DNA from: a virus
DNA length: 39,138 bases
Strand: one strand, 5' to 3'
Virus record (IMG/VR): IMGVR_UViG_3300026272_000002
Coordinates: 1 to 39,138 of that record
The notes under the pieces are model-generated. The model did not search any database. It had not been told where the DNA came from and saw only the letters and a program-made list of their open reading frames with translations. Within the stretch, counting starts at the first letter, position 1, and each line of letters opens with the position of its first letter. This document shows, piece by piece, positions 5,255 to 34,340 of the stretch. Made by a program: the position numbers and the translations under genes.

Positions 5255-5566
5255 GTGAGCGCGCCGAAAGAAGGAAAGCGAGTGCCGGCCAAAGAGGCTG
5301 CAGCAATTCTTGGAATCGAAGAGCATCTTATCAGTCGGCTGGATGCCGGCGGGCGCTGGATCAAACGGTATAAGCTGACGCGAAAGACACACGTATATGA
5401 CGTCGATTCCCTTTATCTTTACTTAGAATCATGCCAATCGAAACCATTACAAAAGCCGGGCGCAAGCGGCTCCGCTGGACGTTCAACCGGATCATTTCGG
5501 GCCAGCGTGTCCGCCAAACCAAAGTTCTCCCTGCGGGAATATCTACCGCAGAAGCAGACGGTTTAG
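5255..5566 (+). CDS. xis: Excisionase / AlpA-like helix-turn-helix protein (putative Xis)
   Basis: The N-terminal part KRVPAKEAAAILGIEEHLISRLDAGGRWIKRYKL looks like an MerR/excisionase-type HTH. The gene sits immediately upstream of int. The reading frame overlaps the int start by 136 nt, so the real C-terminus is uncertain. Confidence 0.55.
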   Translation: MSAPKEGKRVPAKEAAAILGIEEHLISRLDAGGRWIKRYKLTRKTHVYDVDSLYLYLESCQSKPLQKPGASGSAGRSTGSFRASVSAKPKFSLREYLPQKQTV

Positions 5567-6429
5567 CGCGTGCCTGGGAAGCTGAGATTTACGCGCTGGC
5601 GACCGGCCAGCGGAAAGAGGTTGTGACGATCGGCGATTGCGTTAAGCTGCATGTCGCAGATAAATGCGCTGAATGGAAGGATGCTACCGCGCGCATCGGA
5701 ATTCTGGAAAAGTGGGCTCCCGAGTACAAAGATCAAGACGCGACTGACTTGCATGACTGGTCAAAGAAGTTTGTCGGCTATATGCGAGCGAAGCAGGATA
5801 AGCACGGTAAACCAAAGAATCCGCTTACAGACAGTTCTATCCGCAATGTTTTGGCGTACCTACGGGCAGCGATGAAATACGCATTCAAAGTAGGCAAGCT
5901 TTCTGAGGATCAGACGGCGCGCATGACGATACCGTCAGTCAATAATGAGCGCCACCACTACCCTGATCGGCGGGAGATGCTTCGGATCGCCAGGAAATGC
6001 CGAAACCGCCAGGTACGCGCCGCGATTCGGATCGCCTTCTATTCGGGCATGCGGAAGGCAGAAATATTACGTGCCAAGCGTACCAAGAAGGGATTTTTGT
6101 TGGAAGATACTAAAAACGGTGAACGGCGGATAATCCCCATCCACCCGCGCATTGCTGTTCTGGCACGCAAGATTCGCTTCACGATCGATGAGGAAAAAGT
6201 ATCTGATCAATGGGATATCGCCCGGGAGCTGGCAGGGTATCCGGATACACGATTCCATGACCTGCGACACGGCGCCGCATCAGAGATGATCAACTCAGGC
6301 GTAGACCTATACACAGTCGGCGCTGTACTCGGTCATATGTCGCCGGCATCGACTCGCCGTTATAGCCATTTGGTGACCGACCGATTAGCTGATGCTGTTT
6401 CTAAAATCGGTGGTAAAAAGGGGAAATAG
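5431..6429 (+). CDS. int: Tyrosine recombinase (phage integrase)
   Basis: C-terminal catalytic signature ...HDLRHGAASEMINSGVDLYTVGAVLGHMSPASTRRYSHL (HxxR ... H ... Y), with an upstream Arg in GMRKAEILRAKR. It is followed directly by attP. Confidence 0.92.
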   Translation: MPIETITKAGRKRLRWTFNRIISGQRVRQTKVLPAGISTAEADGLARAWEAEIYALATGQRKEVVTIGDCVKLHVADKCAEWKDATARIGILEKWAPEYKDQDATDLHDWSKKFVGYMRAKQDKHGKPKNPLTDSSIRNVLAYLRAAMKYAFKVGKLSEDQTARMTIPSVNNERHHYPDRREMLRIARKCRNRQVRAAIRIAFYSGMRKAEILRAKRTKKGFLLEDTKNGERRIIPIHPRIAVLARKIRFTIDEEKVSDQWDIARELAGYPDTRFHDLRHGAASEMINSGVDLYTVGAVLGHMSPASTRRYSHLVTDRLADAVSKIGGKKGK

Positions 6430-6461
6430 AGTGTGTGTATTTCTGCCATTCTATTGTATTC

Positions 6462-6481
6462 AACTGTATCTATTCACAGTA
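6462..6481. promoter_or_regulatory. SOS (LexA-type) box AACTGTATCTATTCACAGTA
   Basis: CTGT (6464-67), N8, ACAG (6476-79), with an AT-rich spacer and 16 of 20 matches to TACTGTATATATATACAGTA. It is non-coding and lies in the attP arm. Confidence 0.55.
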
Positions 6482-6483
6482 TT

Positions 6484-6489
6484 TATAAT
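6484..6489 (+). promoter_or_regulatory. Perfect TATAAT -10 hexamer between two SOS boxes (possible SOS-gated promoter)
   Basis: TATAAT lies 2 nt after the first SOS box. No good -35 is present (TTCAAC at 19-nt spacing), so the promoter call is tentative. Confidence 0.3.
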
Positions 6490-6527
6490 GGCTAAGTCAT
6501 TGATATTTGCCTGCAAACCCTATGCAA

Positions 6528-6547
6528 TGCTGTGTTTAATAACAGTT
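6528..6547. promoter_or_regulatory. SOS (LexA-type) box TGCTGTGTTTAATAACAGTT
   Basis: CTGT (6530-33), N8, ACAG (6542-45). It shares the CTGTGTTTA left half with the boxes at 34101 and (reverse strand) 7032. It ends 4 nt before the tRNA-derived core. Confidence 0.5.
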
Positions 6548-6551
6548 ATAT

Positions 6552-6600
6552 CGGACTCTTAATCCGTAGGTCGAGTGTTCGAGCCACTCACGCCCCACCA
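6552..6600 (+). other. attP core: 3' 49 nt of a tRNA-Lys(CUU) gene (anticodon arm to CCA), not an intact tRNA
   Basis: CGGA-CTCTTAA-TCCG anticodon arm (anticodon CTT), variable loop AGGTC, T-arm GAGTG-TTCGAGC-CACTC, and acceptor 3' strand ACGCCCC plus ACCA. No matching 5' acceptor strand or D-arm is found upstream. Confidence 0.8.
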
Positions 6601-6611
6601 AAGAATACAAA

Positions 6612-6644
6612 GGGTTCCAAGCTATTGGAGCCCTTTTTCTTTTT
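6612..6644 (+). terminator. Rho-independent terminator after the tRNA fragment (possibly bidirectional)
   Basis: Stem GGGTTCC (6612-18) pairs with GGAGCCC (6627-33) around an 8-nt loop, followed by TTTTTCTTTTT. Confidence 0.7.
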
Positions 6645-6672
6645 CAGGTCAGTGTGCATTTTTCTGACAAAC

Positions 6673-7026
6673 TCAACTTGGTTTCGGTCCATGCAGCGGC
6701 GCATCGGTAACCGGTGGCGTCTCATTCAGAATTTCAACAGCCCACTCCTGCAAAGTCGTCGCTGCATTATCGGCATCGAATGAATCGCGCTGCCAGCCAC
6801 GTACCATCATCGCCCGATCGCGCAGGCCAATGATCTGAGGTTGATAGAGCGGGAAGAGAAGATCAGCAGTCCCGACGGCCTGACTCCCCCATTCGAAGAA
6901 ATGCATGACCGGGTAGCCTTCAACGATAAAGGCCTGGATCCGCCCGCGCATGCCTACATCGGCGGCAATATCTTGCTCGCGCCGGCGCCGTCCTTTATCT
7001 CTAAGCTGGGTGACTTTTGCGTACAT
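6673..7026 (-). CDS. Hypothetical 117-aa protein; candidate SOS-regulated moron or antirepressor
   Basis: ORF on the minus strand. The track start (GTG 7047) lies inside the SOS box, and ATG 7026 lies 5 nt downstream of it. No Shine-Dalgarno sequence is present, so the mRNA may be leaderless. No family was recognised. Confidence 0.55.
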   Translation of the reverse strand: MYAKVTQLRDKGRRRREQDIAADVGMRGRIQAFIVEGYPVMHFFEWGSQAVGTADLLFPLYQPQIIGLRDRAMMVRGWQRDSFDADNAATTLQEWAVEILNETPPVTDAPLHGPKPS

Positions 7027-7031
7027 GGATT

Positions 7032-7051
7032 TACTGTATAAAAACACAGTG
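7032..7051. promoter_or_regulatory. SOS (LexA-type) box TACTGTATAAAAACACAGTG
   Basis: CTGT (7034-37), N8, ACAG (7046-49), with 16 of 20 matches to the consensus. It lies in the divergent region between the 117-aa gene and the acyltransferase and covers a possible minus-strand -10 (TATACA, 7040-7035). Confidence 0.6.
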
Positions 7052-7107
7052 TATCGTAAACGAATTCAGCCATATAAGATTGCCCGCGAATAATCACGAT
7101 AATTACA

Positions 7108-8202
7108 ATGCATAAAATCGCAAACAAAGACATTCGGCTTGACTTTCTTGATGGGCTTCGCGGATGGGGCGCTTTAAGCGTTCTGCTTTATCACACCTTC
7201 GTACAAGGGTTCCCGATCACGGAAAAGGTTTCTGTCGAACTGTACCGATTTTTCTTATTCAATGGCCCCCTAGCCGTCTGGATATTTTTTATCGTTTCTG
7301 GATTTTCCCTATCAATTAAATATTTCCAGTTTGGAGATATTGCATCGCTACGAAGAATCGCTTTGGGTCGCTATATCCGCCTGATGATTCCGATCCTCGC
7401 GGTGGGCATTATTGTTTTCATTCTATTCAAGCTCTCGATAATTCCCGCGGCATCTGAACGCCCTTCAGCGTTTCAAGCGTTCCTTGCCGTGCCGCCGACC
7501 CTGCATGATGCTTTGAGGTTTGGCCTGTTCGACGTATTTTTCAAGTACGACGCGAGCAAATCATTATCGCCTCCGCTGTGGACGATGGCCTATGAACTAT
7601 GGGGTTCAGCAATGGTCATCGGAACGTTATTTGTCGCTGGAAAATCACCGTATAGATTTGCACTCTATTTGGCAATCGGCGTATTGGCCCTGCTCGTTCA
7701 TGTGTTCTATATCAACTTCATAATAGGGATTGTGTTTGCTGACGTCTACTCTGGCGGCCTCAGGCACAGATATGCCAACCTATGGAAATATCTCCCCGGC
7801 GCGGCCCTTGTCGCCGGCCTAATTGCATCAGCATTCCTCAGAAGAGAATCGTCAGATTTTCATTTTCTTGCCAGCGCTGCGTTAATCTCATTAGGCGTTA
7901 TTTTTGATAAACATGCCGCGCGCGCCATATCGTCCAAGTTGAGCAGGTTTCTTGGGCGCATTTCCTTCCCGCTATACCTCATCCATTCCACGGTATTCTT
8001 TTCATACTCACTTTGGGTATTTGGGATATGGGGAAGCACGGCAGAGAGTTCATTTGAGGTGAAAATCTTGCTGAATATTTCCACTGTTTTAGTGGCAATC
8101 CTTGCCGCCATCGCATTGACACCAGCGGACACTTTCAGTGTCTGGCTATCGAAAAAATTCGCCGCTGTGTTTGTGCGAAAGCCGTCCCCCGATCAGCGCT
8201 AA
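7108..8202 (+). CDS. Acyltransferase family 3 integral membrane protein (O-antigen/LPS acetylase-like lysogenic conversion gene)
   Basis: N-terminal signature RLDFLDGLRGWGALSVLLYHTF followed by about ten hydrophobic segments. The region is AT-richer than the rest of the genome, and the gene is convergent with the late operon. Confidence 0.88.
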   Translation: MHKIANKDIRLDFLDGLRGWGALSVLLYHTFVQGFPITEKVSVELYRFFLFNGPLAVWIFFIVSGFSLSIKYFQFGDIASLRRIALGRYIRLMIPILAVGIIVFILFKLSIIPAASERPSAFQAFLAVPPTLHDALRFGLFDVFFKYDASKSLSPPLWTMAYELWGSAMVIGTLFVAGKSPYRFALYLAIGVLALLVHVFYINFIIGIVFADVYSGGLRHRYANLWKYLPGAALVAGLIASAFLRRESSDFHFLASAALISLGVIFDKHAARAISSKLSRFLGRISFPLYLIHSTVFFSYSLWVFGIWGSTAESSFEVKILLNISTVLVAILAAIALTPADTFSVWLSKKFAAVFVRKPSPDQR

Positions 8203-33392: not shown

Positions 33393-33419
33393 TATTATCG
33401 GTCACCCGATATTAGTCAA
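33393..33419 (-). promoter_or_regulatory. Early lytic promoter (PR-like): TTGACT ... GATAAT/TAATAA
   Basis: The minus strand reads CGCTTGACTaatatcgggtgaccGATAATaATG. The -35 context is identical to that of the promoter at 34256. The spacing to the best -10 is short (14 nt), so the exact hexamers are uncertain. Confidence 0.4.
33396..33411. promoter_or_regulatory. Operator, perfect palindrome TATCGG-tcac-CCGATA
   Basis: 6-4-6 inverted repeat inside the PR-like promoter, with the same half-sites as the site at 34267-34282. Confidence 0.65.
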
Positions 33420-33433
33420 GCGGAATACCGTTT
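33418..33433. promoter_or_regulatory. Operator variant AAGCGG-aata-CCGTTT (core CGGAATACCG)
   Basis: It shares the CGG-N4-CCG core and abuts the -35 hexamer in the same way as the site at 34242-34257. Confidence 0.5.
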
Positions 33434-33457
33434 AAGATTATCGGTAGACTGCAAACC

Positions 33458-33880
33458 ATGAATACGAAAGGTCGATCAGCGTTTGGATTGCGCTTGGTAC
33501 AGGCAAGAAAACACGCCAAACTCACGCAAGAAGTTGCGGCAAAGCGCGCAGGAATGGCGCAGTCAACGCTTGGGGAATTGGAAATGGAAGGTCAGGGTTC
33601 GACTTTCACTGCTCAGTTGGCAGAGATTTATTCTGTGAACCCCAATTGGCTTGCAACTGGGAGAGGCGAGATGCTTGGAAAGGATGTTGAGGCTGCTCCT
33701 CCCAGAGTGGCTACAGTCCTTCCCATACCGGCACCTGAGAATCAAGAACTCAATGACGCCATCAGGCTTCTTGAGCTATTCTCCCAGGCATCGGCTAACG
33801 GCAAATCATTTATTCTTACGGCGGCCATCAATGCTGAAAAGGCTTCCGGAAGAAAGCGCAGCACCAGTACCCGCGACTAG
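33458..33880 (+). CDS. CI-like repressor, XRE-family HTH, 140 aa, without a peptidase S24 domain
   Basis: HTH motif LTQEVAAKRAGMAQSTLGELE. The short C-terminal region has no Ala-Gly/Ser-Lys autocleavage module. The gene is divergent from cro-like. Confidence 0.8.
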   Translation: MNTKGRSAFGLRLVQARKHAKLTQEVAAKRAGMAQSTLGELEMEGQGSTFTAQLAEIYSVNPNWLATGRGEMLGKDVEAAPPRVATVLPIPAPENQELNDAIRLLELFSQASANGKSFILTAAINAEKASGRKRSTSTRD

Positions 33881-34009
33881 CTTGAGAGGCGCACGATATT
33901 CATGATGGTGTGCCGCCCTGTCCTTAGCCAGCATCAGCAGCATATTCCTATCTGATGCCGACATCCCCCTGAAAGCTGTAATAAGTTCGCTTTCTTGTCT
34001 CTTCTGCAT
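33806..34009 (-). CDS. Small ORF (67 codons) convergent with and overlapping the repressor gene
   Basis: Strong RBS GGGGAGGAAG 5 nt before ATG 34009. Its last 75 nt are antisense to the 3' end of the repressor gene. An SOS box lies 92 nt upstream. Confidence 0.5.
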   Translation of the reverse strand: MQKRQESELITAFRGMSASDRNMLLMLAKDRAAHHHEYRAPLKLVAGTGAALSSGSLFSIDGRRKNK

Positions 34010-34100: not shown

Positions 34101-34120
34101 TACTGTGTTTACGTACAGTC
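34101..34120. promoter_or_regulatory. SOS (LexA-type) box TACTGTGTTTACGTACAGTC
   Basis: CTGT (34103-06), N8, ACAG (34115-18). It lies in the non-coding immunity region and overlaps a possible plus-strand promoter, TTTACG (34108-13)-16 nt-TAAAAT (34130-35). Confidence 0.55.
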
Positions 34121-34241
34121 TAAATCAATTAAAATCGAAAAACCATGAAATTTTTCATCGGTTATTGATATTGCTCATCTCTTAACGATCTAGCGAATTT
34201 CACCGGCAGAAAATATGCCATGCAAAATATTTTTTAAAAAA

Positions 34242-34257
34242 TATCGGAATACCGCTT
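34242..34257. promoter_or_regulatory. Operator variant TATCGG-aata-CCGCTT
   Basis: CGGAATACCG core identical to 33421-33430. It abuts the -35 hexamer. Confidence 0.5.
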
Positions 34258-34284
34258 GACTTCATTTATCGGTTGTCCGATACT
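34256..34284 (+). promoter_or_regulatory. Early promoter of the recombination/integration operon (PL-like): TTGACT-17 nt-GATACT
   Basis: Hexamers at 34256-61 and 34279-84 with a 17-nt spacer. An operator palindrome fills the spacer and the -10. Confidence 0.6.
34267..34282. promoter_or_regulatory. Operator, perfect palindrome TATCGG-ttgt-CCGATA
   Basis: Same half-sites as 33396-33411. It overlaps the -10. Confidence 0.65.
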
Positions 34285-34340
34285 TCAATCACACCAAGCG
34301 AAATACACAAATCGCAACCAATAACCAGATGGAGTTGAGC

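Follow-up and report, generated by a model that had tools for sequence, protein, structure and literature searches.

A conserved pair of LexA-type operators in the attachment site of a clade of Burkholderiales phage integrases

The attachment site and its LexA-type boxes

The stretch of DNA analysed here (hereafter the window) is the 39,138-nucleotide (nt) IMG/VR record IMGVR_UViG_3300026272_000002, which, judging from its sequence, looks like a complete temperate phage, and the subject of this report is its attachment site (attP), the long arm of which carries two palindromes that fit the operator of the SOS repressor LexA, here denoted boxes A and B. The tyrosine integrase gene int is the final gene of the plus-strand early operon, and its transcription heads toward attP (table 1). 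The segment between positions 6430 and 6669 is a complete, unintegrated attP; it is bracketed by a 19-nt direct repeat, AGTGTGTGTATTTCTGCCA at 6430-6448 and AGTGTGCATTTTTCTGACA at 6651-6669. ARAGORN did not find a full tRNA anywhere in the window, and therefore the window holds the phage form of the site. Along the long (P) arm, an arm-type Int site comes first, then LexA operator A, next an IHF site and then LexA operator B; after these stands the core, which is the anticodon stem-loop of a tRNA-Lys 3' part, and the recognisable sites nearly fill the arm. The anticodon loop, CTCTTAA at 6556-6562, is probably the crossover region. The short (P') arm holds the remaining tRNA, the tRNA terminator and the second arm-type site.

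The tRNA-Lys 3' part is identical to that beside a prophage in Herbaspirillum autotrophicum (L037; relatives are designated here by L numbers) and, because L037 has this same tRNA-Lys(CTT) part, the host of the phage in the window probably belongs to the Oxalobacteraceae. In L037, a hairpin homologous to the one in the window lies 3' of the host tRNA-Lys. A preliminary description of this DNA, made from the letters alone, had placed a strong terminator at 6612-44; a hairpin with a T run is indeed present and spans 6609-6645, and since the same tRNA-Lys(CTT) 3' part is followed in L037 by the homologous host terminator, it is the tRNA gene's own terminator, which the phage carries. The Rfam search yielded only a sub-threshold partial tRNA match and sub-threshold matches to the terminator hairpin. 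The positions given in that description for the two palindromes (6462-81 and 6528-47), for a TATAAT hexamer (6484-89) and for the 49-nt tRNA-Lys part (6552-6600) all held.

The exact motif CTGT-N8-ACAG occurs four times in the window, at 6464, 6530, 7034 and 34103, against an expectation of 0.45 +/- 0.67 from shuffled sequences; none of the 100 shuffles reached four. When scored with a weight matrix built from Escherichia coli LexA operators, the training sites of which score 12.8-27.6 bits, box A obtained 18.8, box B 18.3, box 3 22.9 and box 4 18.5 bits, with the next best 20-mer in the 39 kb at only 9.8 bits. Both arm boxes are within the score range of the E. coli training operators, in support of the earlier proposal that the palindromes, which share their attP with a terminator and lie in an arm beside a tRNA-Lys 3' fragment, are LexA-type operators. 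In most beta- and gamma-Proteobacteria, LexA has CTGT-N8-ACAG as its motif (PMC3323433). The hosts of the relatives described below are Burkholderiales and the motif is typical of beta-Proteobacteria, so that the LexA of the host would be expected to recognise the boxes.

Other binders were considered as well. No S24/LexA-like domain was detected in CI or in 17 other open reading frames (ORFs) compared with Pfam, a scan that was not exhaustive for the ORFs of the window, and a phage-encoded LexA-like protein was accordingly not retained as a candidate among these 18 ORFs. Boxes A and B were also rejected as operators of the phage repressor CI, whose operators have a different motif, TATCGG..CCGATA. 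Inverted repeats of the TATCGG-N-CCGATA type are found at 33393-33457, in the cI/cro intergenic region, and at 34239-34285, around the early plus-strand promoter, and are probably the CI operators.

Table 1 Features of the attP region and of related loci in the window; the last but one column gives the position relative to the centre of the anticodon loop (6559)
Feature	Coordinates	Strand	From loop centre	Remarks
Conserved ORF of 102-103 amino acids, helix-turn-helix (HTH)-like N-terminus	5255..5566	+		From the ORF list; overlaps the int start
Tyrosine integrase, int	5431..6429	+		PF00589, 9e-16; PHROG 1, 3e-36
P-arm arm-type Int site candidate, AGTGTGTGTATTTCTGCCA	6430..6448	+	-129 to -111	Direct repeat with 6651-6669; same place in all relatives
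LexA box A, AACTGTATCTATTCACAGTA	6462..6481 (palindrome core 6464-79)	.	-97 to -78	Exact CTGT-N8-ACAG
TATAAT hexamer	6484..6489	+		Sequence match; not conserved
IHF consensus, TATCAATGACTTA (WATCAANNNNTTR)	6493..6505	-	about -68 to -33	9/9 specified positions; midway between the LexA boxes
LexA box B, TGCTGTGTTTAATAACAGTT	6528..6547 (palindrome core 6530-45)	.	-31 to -12	Exact CTGT-N8-ACAG; abuts the core
Anticodon stem (probable core-type Int site)			from about -8	
attP core and 49-nt tRNA-Lys(CTT) 3' part	6552..6600	+		Partial Rfam tRNA match, 25.4 bits, sub-threshold
Terminator-like hairpin and T run (intrinsic terminator of the tRNA gene), P' arm	6609..6645	+		Homologous hairpin in L037
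P'-arm arm-type Int site candidate, AGTGTGCATTTTTCTGACA	6651..6669	+		Second copy of the 19-nt direct repeat
117-amino-acid gene	6673..7026	-		Converges on attP; LexA box 7 nt upstream of ATG
LexA box 3, TACTGTATAAAAACACAGTG	7032..7051	.		Exact motif, 22.9 bits; promoter-proximal operator of the 117-amino-acid gene, outside attP
HTH-only CI-like repressor gene	33458-33880			Pfam/PHROG; without peptidase domain
LexA box 4, TACTGTGTTTACGTACAGTC	34101..34120	.		Exact motif, 18.5 bits; beside the immunity region

Conservation of the box pair among relatives

Relatives were collected in IMG/VR and in metagenomes by integrase homology alone (63-79% identity), and the resulting sample (n=14) is the one that is unbiased with respect to the boxes. 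A DNA-pattern search added more IMG/VR members of the arrangement along with integrated copies in Herbaspirillum autotrophicum, Herminiimonas contaminans, two Paraburkholderia and one Caballeronia, for a total of about 27 distinct attP modules with the same layout, which belong to a clade of Burkholderiales phage integrases with at least 63% amino acid identity; the statistics on geometry were taken over 26 modules. In the tRNA orientation, box A stands 16-17 nt beyond GGTGTGnnTTTTTCTGCC in the layout of the clade; an IHF-type site and box B come next, and another 10 nt separate box B from the anticodon loop, beyond which lie the remaining tRNA and then the second arm-type site. GGTGTGnnTTTTTCTGCC is the family consensus of the arm-type Int repeat of the clade, GTGTGnnTTTTTCTGCC. 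The TGTAT(T/C) repeats that had previously been suggested as Int arm sites are not conserved in the relatives, and the 19-nt direct repeat is to be preferred; of the four positions given for these repeats, 6436 is correct and the others are off by 1-2 nt, with the actual starts at 6455 and 6465 and with GTATT at 6480.

Both boxes are kept in every integrase-found relative with a readable P arm, box A being exact in 13 of the 14 and box B in 10, with a single mismatch in the other four. The box consensus in the clade is cACTGTtcaCATATACAGcAT for A and gcCTGTGTTTACgaACAGtg for B. Within the 14 integrase-found sequences, the information content of the CTGT/ACAG positions amounts to 1.95 bits per column in box A and 1.82 in box B, compared to 0.87 in the DNA between the boxes and 0.85 in the spacer that separates the arm-type site from box A, that is, the LexA half-sites are the most conserved columns in the arm.

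The distances are conserved along with the motifs. Box A follows the arm-type site after 16-17 nt, boxes A and B are 66-68 nt apart from start to start, and the sum of the two distances is 83-85 nt; a first gap of 16 nt is paired with a second gap of 68 nt in four of seven cases, and a gap of 17 nt in one of 19. The anticodon loop lies exactly 10 nt from box B in 24 of the 26 modules. On the P' side, the distance from the loop centre to the second arm-type site, a direct copy of which is present in all unintegrated relatives, is variable (89-114 nt). IHF sites are typical of att arms, and here 14 of the 26 modules have an IHF match of at least 7/9 in the same register, the W falling at +41 to +43 when counted from where box A starts; in 12 of these 14 it reaches at least 8/9, which has a background frequency of about 0.5%.

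The box pair is kept with six different targets, namely tRNA-Lys CTT, tRNA-Lys TTT, tRNA-Leu TAA, tRNA-Leu CAA, tRNA-Sec TCA and an 88-nt class II tRNA with the anticodon CAT. The pair is retained as well in L012, L013, L053 and L058, in which the entire attP has the opposite orientation relative to int. In integrated prophages of this inverted class, int adjoins the rebuilt tRNA (L005, L007, L011, L051, L052, L054 and L057), and the attP arrangement implies that the LexA arm would come to lie at the far end of the prophage after integration. The genes that flank attP on either side vary between members. The box pair thus belongs to the att site, in that it follows the core, and not to int or to any gene. 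Across IMG/VR, an exact box pair 48-54 nt apart followed by a loop-like motif was found in 17 stretches, 13 of which are members of this family, and the paired-box arrangement is almost confined to it. On the strength of the comparison, the two LexA operators are built-in parts of the arm across the whole clade rather than a private promoter of the phage in the window.

Some members of the clade deserve separate mention. The class II tRNA, which serves as an integration target in Paraburkholderia-type hosts, is 85-88 nt long with a long variable arm and the anticodon CAT (L005, 4081-4165; also L007, with 3' parts in L021, L039, L050 and L059); it obtains 45.6 bits with the Rfam tRNA model and is labelled tRNA-Met by ARAGORN, and a CAU anticodon in a class II tRNA is unusual. 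At the crossover position, L030 has the non-canonical loop TGCCAGA (7270-7330 oriented), with no tRNA following, and L025 has GTTGAAG; these two may use a non-tRNA target or a diverged overlap. In L047 and L048, the clade integrase (71% identity) is followed past position 2481 by unrelated DNA, with no arm-type site, LexA boxes or tRNA, and this integrase may be a domesticated or rearranged copy.

No characterised phage with this arm was found in a comparison with 50,697 cultured-phage records: BlastN searches with positions 5400-7200 and with the attP of a relative retrieved tRNA genes only, and the best TBlastN matches of Int to cultured phages were those of Bordetella avium phages, with nothing above 43% identity. 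A full-text literature search did not return any report of LexA boxes in an attP arm.

Promoters, neighbouring genes and alternative explanations

The preliminary description offered three possible roles for the boxes, namely control of a transcript from the TATAAT hexamer across the att site, a contribution of LexA to recombination as an accessory or architectural factor, and transcriptional interference with the convergent 117-amino-acid gene. For the first, the sequence gives little encouragement. The TATAAT of the window has no -35 element at 16-18 nt, was not reported by a consensus promoter scan and is not kept even in the closest relatives (L037, L041, L042 and L044), the hexamer in the matching position being TAAAGT in L037, TAAAAA in L018 and TTTTAA elsewhere, with none in the GC-richer majority. 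Moreover, the transcription start site proposed near 6496 falls within the perfect IHF consensus. The hexamer is probably fortuitous.

Nevertheless, the main rival to a role in recombination is a conventional one, in which the boxes serve as operators for one or two promoters in the arm that LexA represses and that would produce an SOS-induced short transcript across the core, either a tRNA-3'-fragment RNA or an act of transcription that modulates recombination or reads into host DNA; we consider this proposal, in either form, unlikely although deserving of attention. Besides the TATAAT after box A in the window, its support comes from promoter-like elements in two sets of relatives. L037 and L018 have a -35 element, TTCACT, that reaches over the left edge of box A and is followed after 16-17 nt by TAAAGT or TAAAAA, and at the Leu and CAT sites TTTAC(G/A) within box B stands 17 nt before a -10 element, TAAAAT or CATAAT, that is supplied by the anticodon loop. 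The latter arrangement scores 8.8-12.4, compared with 9.9 for the 95th percentile of shuffled sequences, and would account for the fixed 10-nt distance. Yet neither arrangement is family-wide: the box A promoter is absent from the GC-richer majority, and the box B/loop version breaks down where the loop is of the Sec type (TTCAAA) and gives a weak match in the window, even though the two boxes persist in these cases. The transcript, furthermore, would vary with the type of tRNA and would stop at the tRNA terminator, both in the phage and, as seen from L037, after integration, and no conserved gene lies downstream in either direction. A simple promoter also has no need of two operators 67 bp apart around an IHF site and at a fixed distance from the Int arm site. 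No family-wide promoter accompanying the boxes emerged from the consensus scan and the comparison of relatives, so that a promoter role is possible in these subgroups but, from the sequences compared, does not explain the pattern across the family.

Two further candidates within the arm were rejected. A leftward promoter antisense to int is at odds with the minus strand, where promoter signals have no positional conservation among the relatives, and the gene found on that side is not the same in the two orientation classes. Two small ORFs in the arm, one at 6392-6562 and one of 24 amino acids at 6490, were dismissed on the ground that conservation is in blocks at protein-site motifs and that the ATG comes straight after the TATAAT.

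The 117-amino-acid gene that converges on attP has no match in Pfam or PHROG and just nine unnamed homologues, one of which (L017) likewise has a LexA box 7 nt upstream. It is missing from the attP neighbourhoods of most relatives, which makes interference with this gene an unlikely purpose of the arm boxes. Another protein family, of about 115-130 amino acids with a motif like ..LT.AQL..I..RN......LL.EI., is encoded just outside attP in many relatives (L021, L023, L027, L075 and L088), those of the sister clade without arm boxes among them, with a LexA box within a few nt of each start codon.

Neighbouring genes enter into a second alternative, in which the arm boxes are auxiliary LexA sites that aid repression of a neighbour gene through cooperativity or looping, or that raise the local occupancy of LexA, with no role in recombination. 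A third LexA box does precede a neighbour gene 80-500 bp from the pair in the window (7034) and in L020, L021, L027, L030 and L049, and the sister clade too has a LexA-controlled gene just outside attP. This explanation is nonetheless improbable, given that there is no third box within 2.5 kb in L018 and L024 and none in the approximately 1.1 kb that is readable on the box A side in L025, that the neighbour gene differs in identity, side and orientation, and that integration parts the pair from its P'-side neighbours, for example the 117-amino-acid gene of the window. Nor does it account for the exact register in which the boxes stand to the arm site, to the IHF site and to the anticodon loop.

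Slightly less probable still is that a protein of the phage, for example the product of the excisionase-like ORF or another regulator, binds the palindromes in place of LexA and that their fit to the SOS box is coincidence or mimicry. There is almost no free arm DNA for an excisionase, Xis, which might therefore bind over a box, and some positions outside the minimal LexA core show conservation, with cATATACAGcAT for box A and CTGTGTTTAC for box B. However, what boxes A and B have in common is essentially limited to the bases that LexA contacts and the 8-bp spacing, and the same CTGTGTTT-type half-site recurs well away from attP in boxes close to promoters (7034, 34103 and, in the relatives, the third boxes). 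The scores, in addition, equal those of E. coli operators, the motif of the CI operators is a different one, and excisionases usually bind direct repeats. A relic, for instance a captured LexA-regulated promoter kept just for arm length, is very improbable even though the sister clade works without boxes, for the LexA half-sites are the most conserved arm columns amid DNA that is near random, and length alone would not preserve CTGT/ACAG.

As to the other genes of the phage, the ORF of 102-103 amino acids and int are the last two of the plus-strand early operon and share the first ~135 nt of int in different frames. The ORF is found upstream of int throughout the clade and is conserved over its full length with at least 63% identity (TBlastN); it has no match in Pfam or PHROG and is a candidate for Xis. 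Cro-like and CP76-type CII genes are also present in the window (Pfam/PHROG). Because CI is without a peptidase domain and good LexA boxes are present at 7032 and 34101, the phage probably senses SOS through the LexA of the host, as coliphage 186 does. A 67-amino-acid minus-strand ORF (33806-34009) overlaps the 3' end of the CI gene, and LexA box 4 lies 94 nt upstream of it; this ORF and the LexA-boxed 117-amino-acid gene are candidates for a LexA-controlled antirepressor in a 186-like induction. The sister contig k141_193531 of ENA ERZ27311005 (L122, 42 kb) has an attP and a 117-amino-acid gene identical to those of the window, with divergence starting just past LexA box 3 (1400-1500 in L122, 7050-8202 in the window), and it is without the acyltransferase gene at 7108-8202; therefore, this O-acetyltransferase-like gene is a moron inserted beside attP. 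Outside the family, AT-rich phages in IMG/VR that are unrelated to it (L123, 9030-9200; L124; L127) have LexA boxes clustered in a non-coding stretch of ~150 bp, three to four in number and with two of the boxes adjacent.

LexA as a possible component of the recombination complex

The boxes are situated between the arm-type Int site and the core, keep their spacing, travel with the att site and share their arm with an IHF site, as would be expected of accessory sites. Among the three roles proposed at the outset, that of an accessory or architectural factor best fits the fixed distances to the arm-type Int site, to the IHF site and to the crossover region, which hold over six tRNA targets and in both orientations relative to int. 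We therefore favour, with a probability of roughly one half, the view that LexA serves the recombination complex as an accessory or locking factor that responds to SOS. The sequences show the sites, how good they are, and how far they and their geometry are conserved; that LexA binds boxes A and B and affects recombination is what we infer from them.

In an undamaged cell, dimers of host LexA would occupy both boxes, flanking the IHF-induced bend, and would fill the stretch of the arm in which lambda puts Xis, Fis and IHF H2, with box B abutting the core-type Int site. LexA might in this way help to shape the integrative complex, or prevent the excisive complex from assembling at the prophage junction in which this arm is retained, or do both. 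Upon SOS induction, RecA-stimulated cleavage of LexA would empty the boxes and alter what Int can do at the arm, so that recombination would be linked directly to DNA damage, in parallel with the phage genes under LexA control at boxes 3 and 4. A more specific version, somewhat less secure than the general one and offered tentatively, is that LexA, as long as it occupies the two boxes on either side of the IHF bend, allows or assists integration and prevents excision, and that its self-cleavage during SOS unlocks the prophage junction. With the same reserve, LexA might be viewed as a damage-sensitive directionality factor, the SOS state being read at the att-site DNA and not just through expression.

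Several points weigh against a role in recombination. The DNA-pattern searches demanded exact boxes, which leaves the integrase-based sample as the only unbiased one. In some subgroups, that of the Sec type among them, the match to IHF is weak, and the box spacing of 66-68 bp centre to centre corresponds to ~6.3-6.5 helical turns, which offers no simple same-face argument. The promoter-like elements described above are also to be counted here, namely those of the AT-rich subgroup (the window, L037 and L018), with a -35 over the left edge of box A and a -10 just after it, and those formed by box B and the loop in the Leu and CAT subgroups. In the sister clade (Int 40-46% identity, with a different arm-type repeat), the P arm is about as long but has no LexA boxes, so that LexA is dispensable for this integrase type in general and the box pair is an innovation of one clade. 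Finally, LexA is not known to us as an accessory factor of recombination.

The nearest mechanistic precedents, by analogy, would be the accessory sites of lambda and the ArgR/PepA and ArcA/PepA accessory sequences of Xer recombination. The lambda attP likewise has direct arm-type Int repeats that flank the core and a long arm with IHF (H1/H2), Xis (X1-X2) and Fis sites at fixed distances, and int adjoins attP and is transcribed toward it; the accessory sites of lambda decide which reaction is possible. We take box B to lie at the position of lambda IHF H2 and box A at that of Xis and Fis. Here, in contrast to lambda, two LexA operators take the Xis, Fis and H2 positions, each arm has one clear arm-type site, and the core is the anticodon stem-loop of a tRNA. 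At the Xer sites (ColE1 cer with ArgR/PepA and pSC101 psi with ArcA/PepA), the operator of a transcription factor lies at a fixed distance from the core of a tyrosine recombinase, and the host transcription factor is an architectural cofactor rather than a gene regulator; there, however, the recombinase is XerCD, the purpose is multimer resolution with a topological filter and the factor is not removed by stress, whereas the role of LexA in the present case is a proposed one.

For the coupling of site-specific recombination to SOS, the nearest precedent appears to be the integron integrase promoter, PintI, where a LexA box beside the attachment site provides this link (PMC3108266); that box overlaps the integrase promoter and acts on transcription. 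The boxes described here, unlike those of integrons, lie downstream of int or at a distance of 40 kb from it, change orientation together with the core and have no conserved promoter. The likeness to the LexA-controlled antirepressor modules of coliphage 186 (tum) and the Gifsy phages extends to the HTH-only CI without a peptidase, to the promoter-proximal LexA boxes (7032 and 34101) and to the probable sensing of SOS through LexA; those modules differ in having no known LexA sites in the attachment site, and boxes A and B precede no gene. The new element, as far as sequence comparison goes, would be an accessory-site architecture in an att arm that involves a signal-responsive host factor.

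The control of integration and excision is understood in terms of phage directionality factors and nucleoid proteins such as IHF and Fis, and, to our knowledge, SOS has been thought to act on it through gene expression only. The conserved pair of LexA operators in an att arm suggests a more direct route, in which the damage sensor may sit in the recombination complex itself and DNA damage would be detected at the very point of integration into, and excision from, the host chromosome. If this holds true, the arrangement would represent a new class of accessory factors for tyrosine integrases and would offer a compact, portable, stress-gated recombination switch for engineering; for the phages of this clade, it would be a simple means to condition excision or integration on DNA damage in the host.

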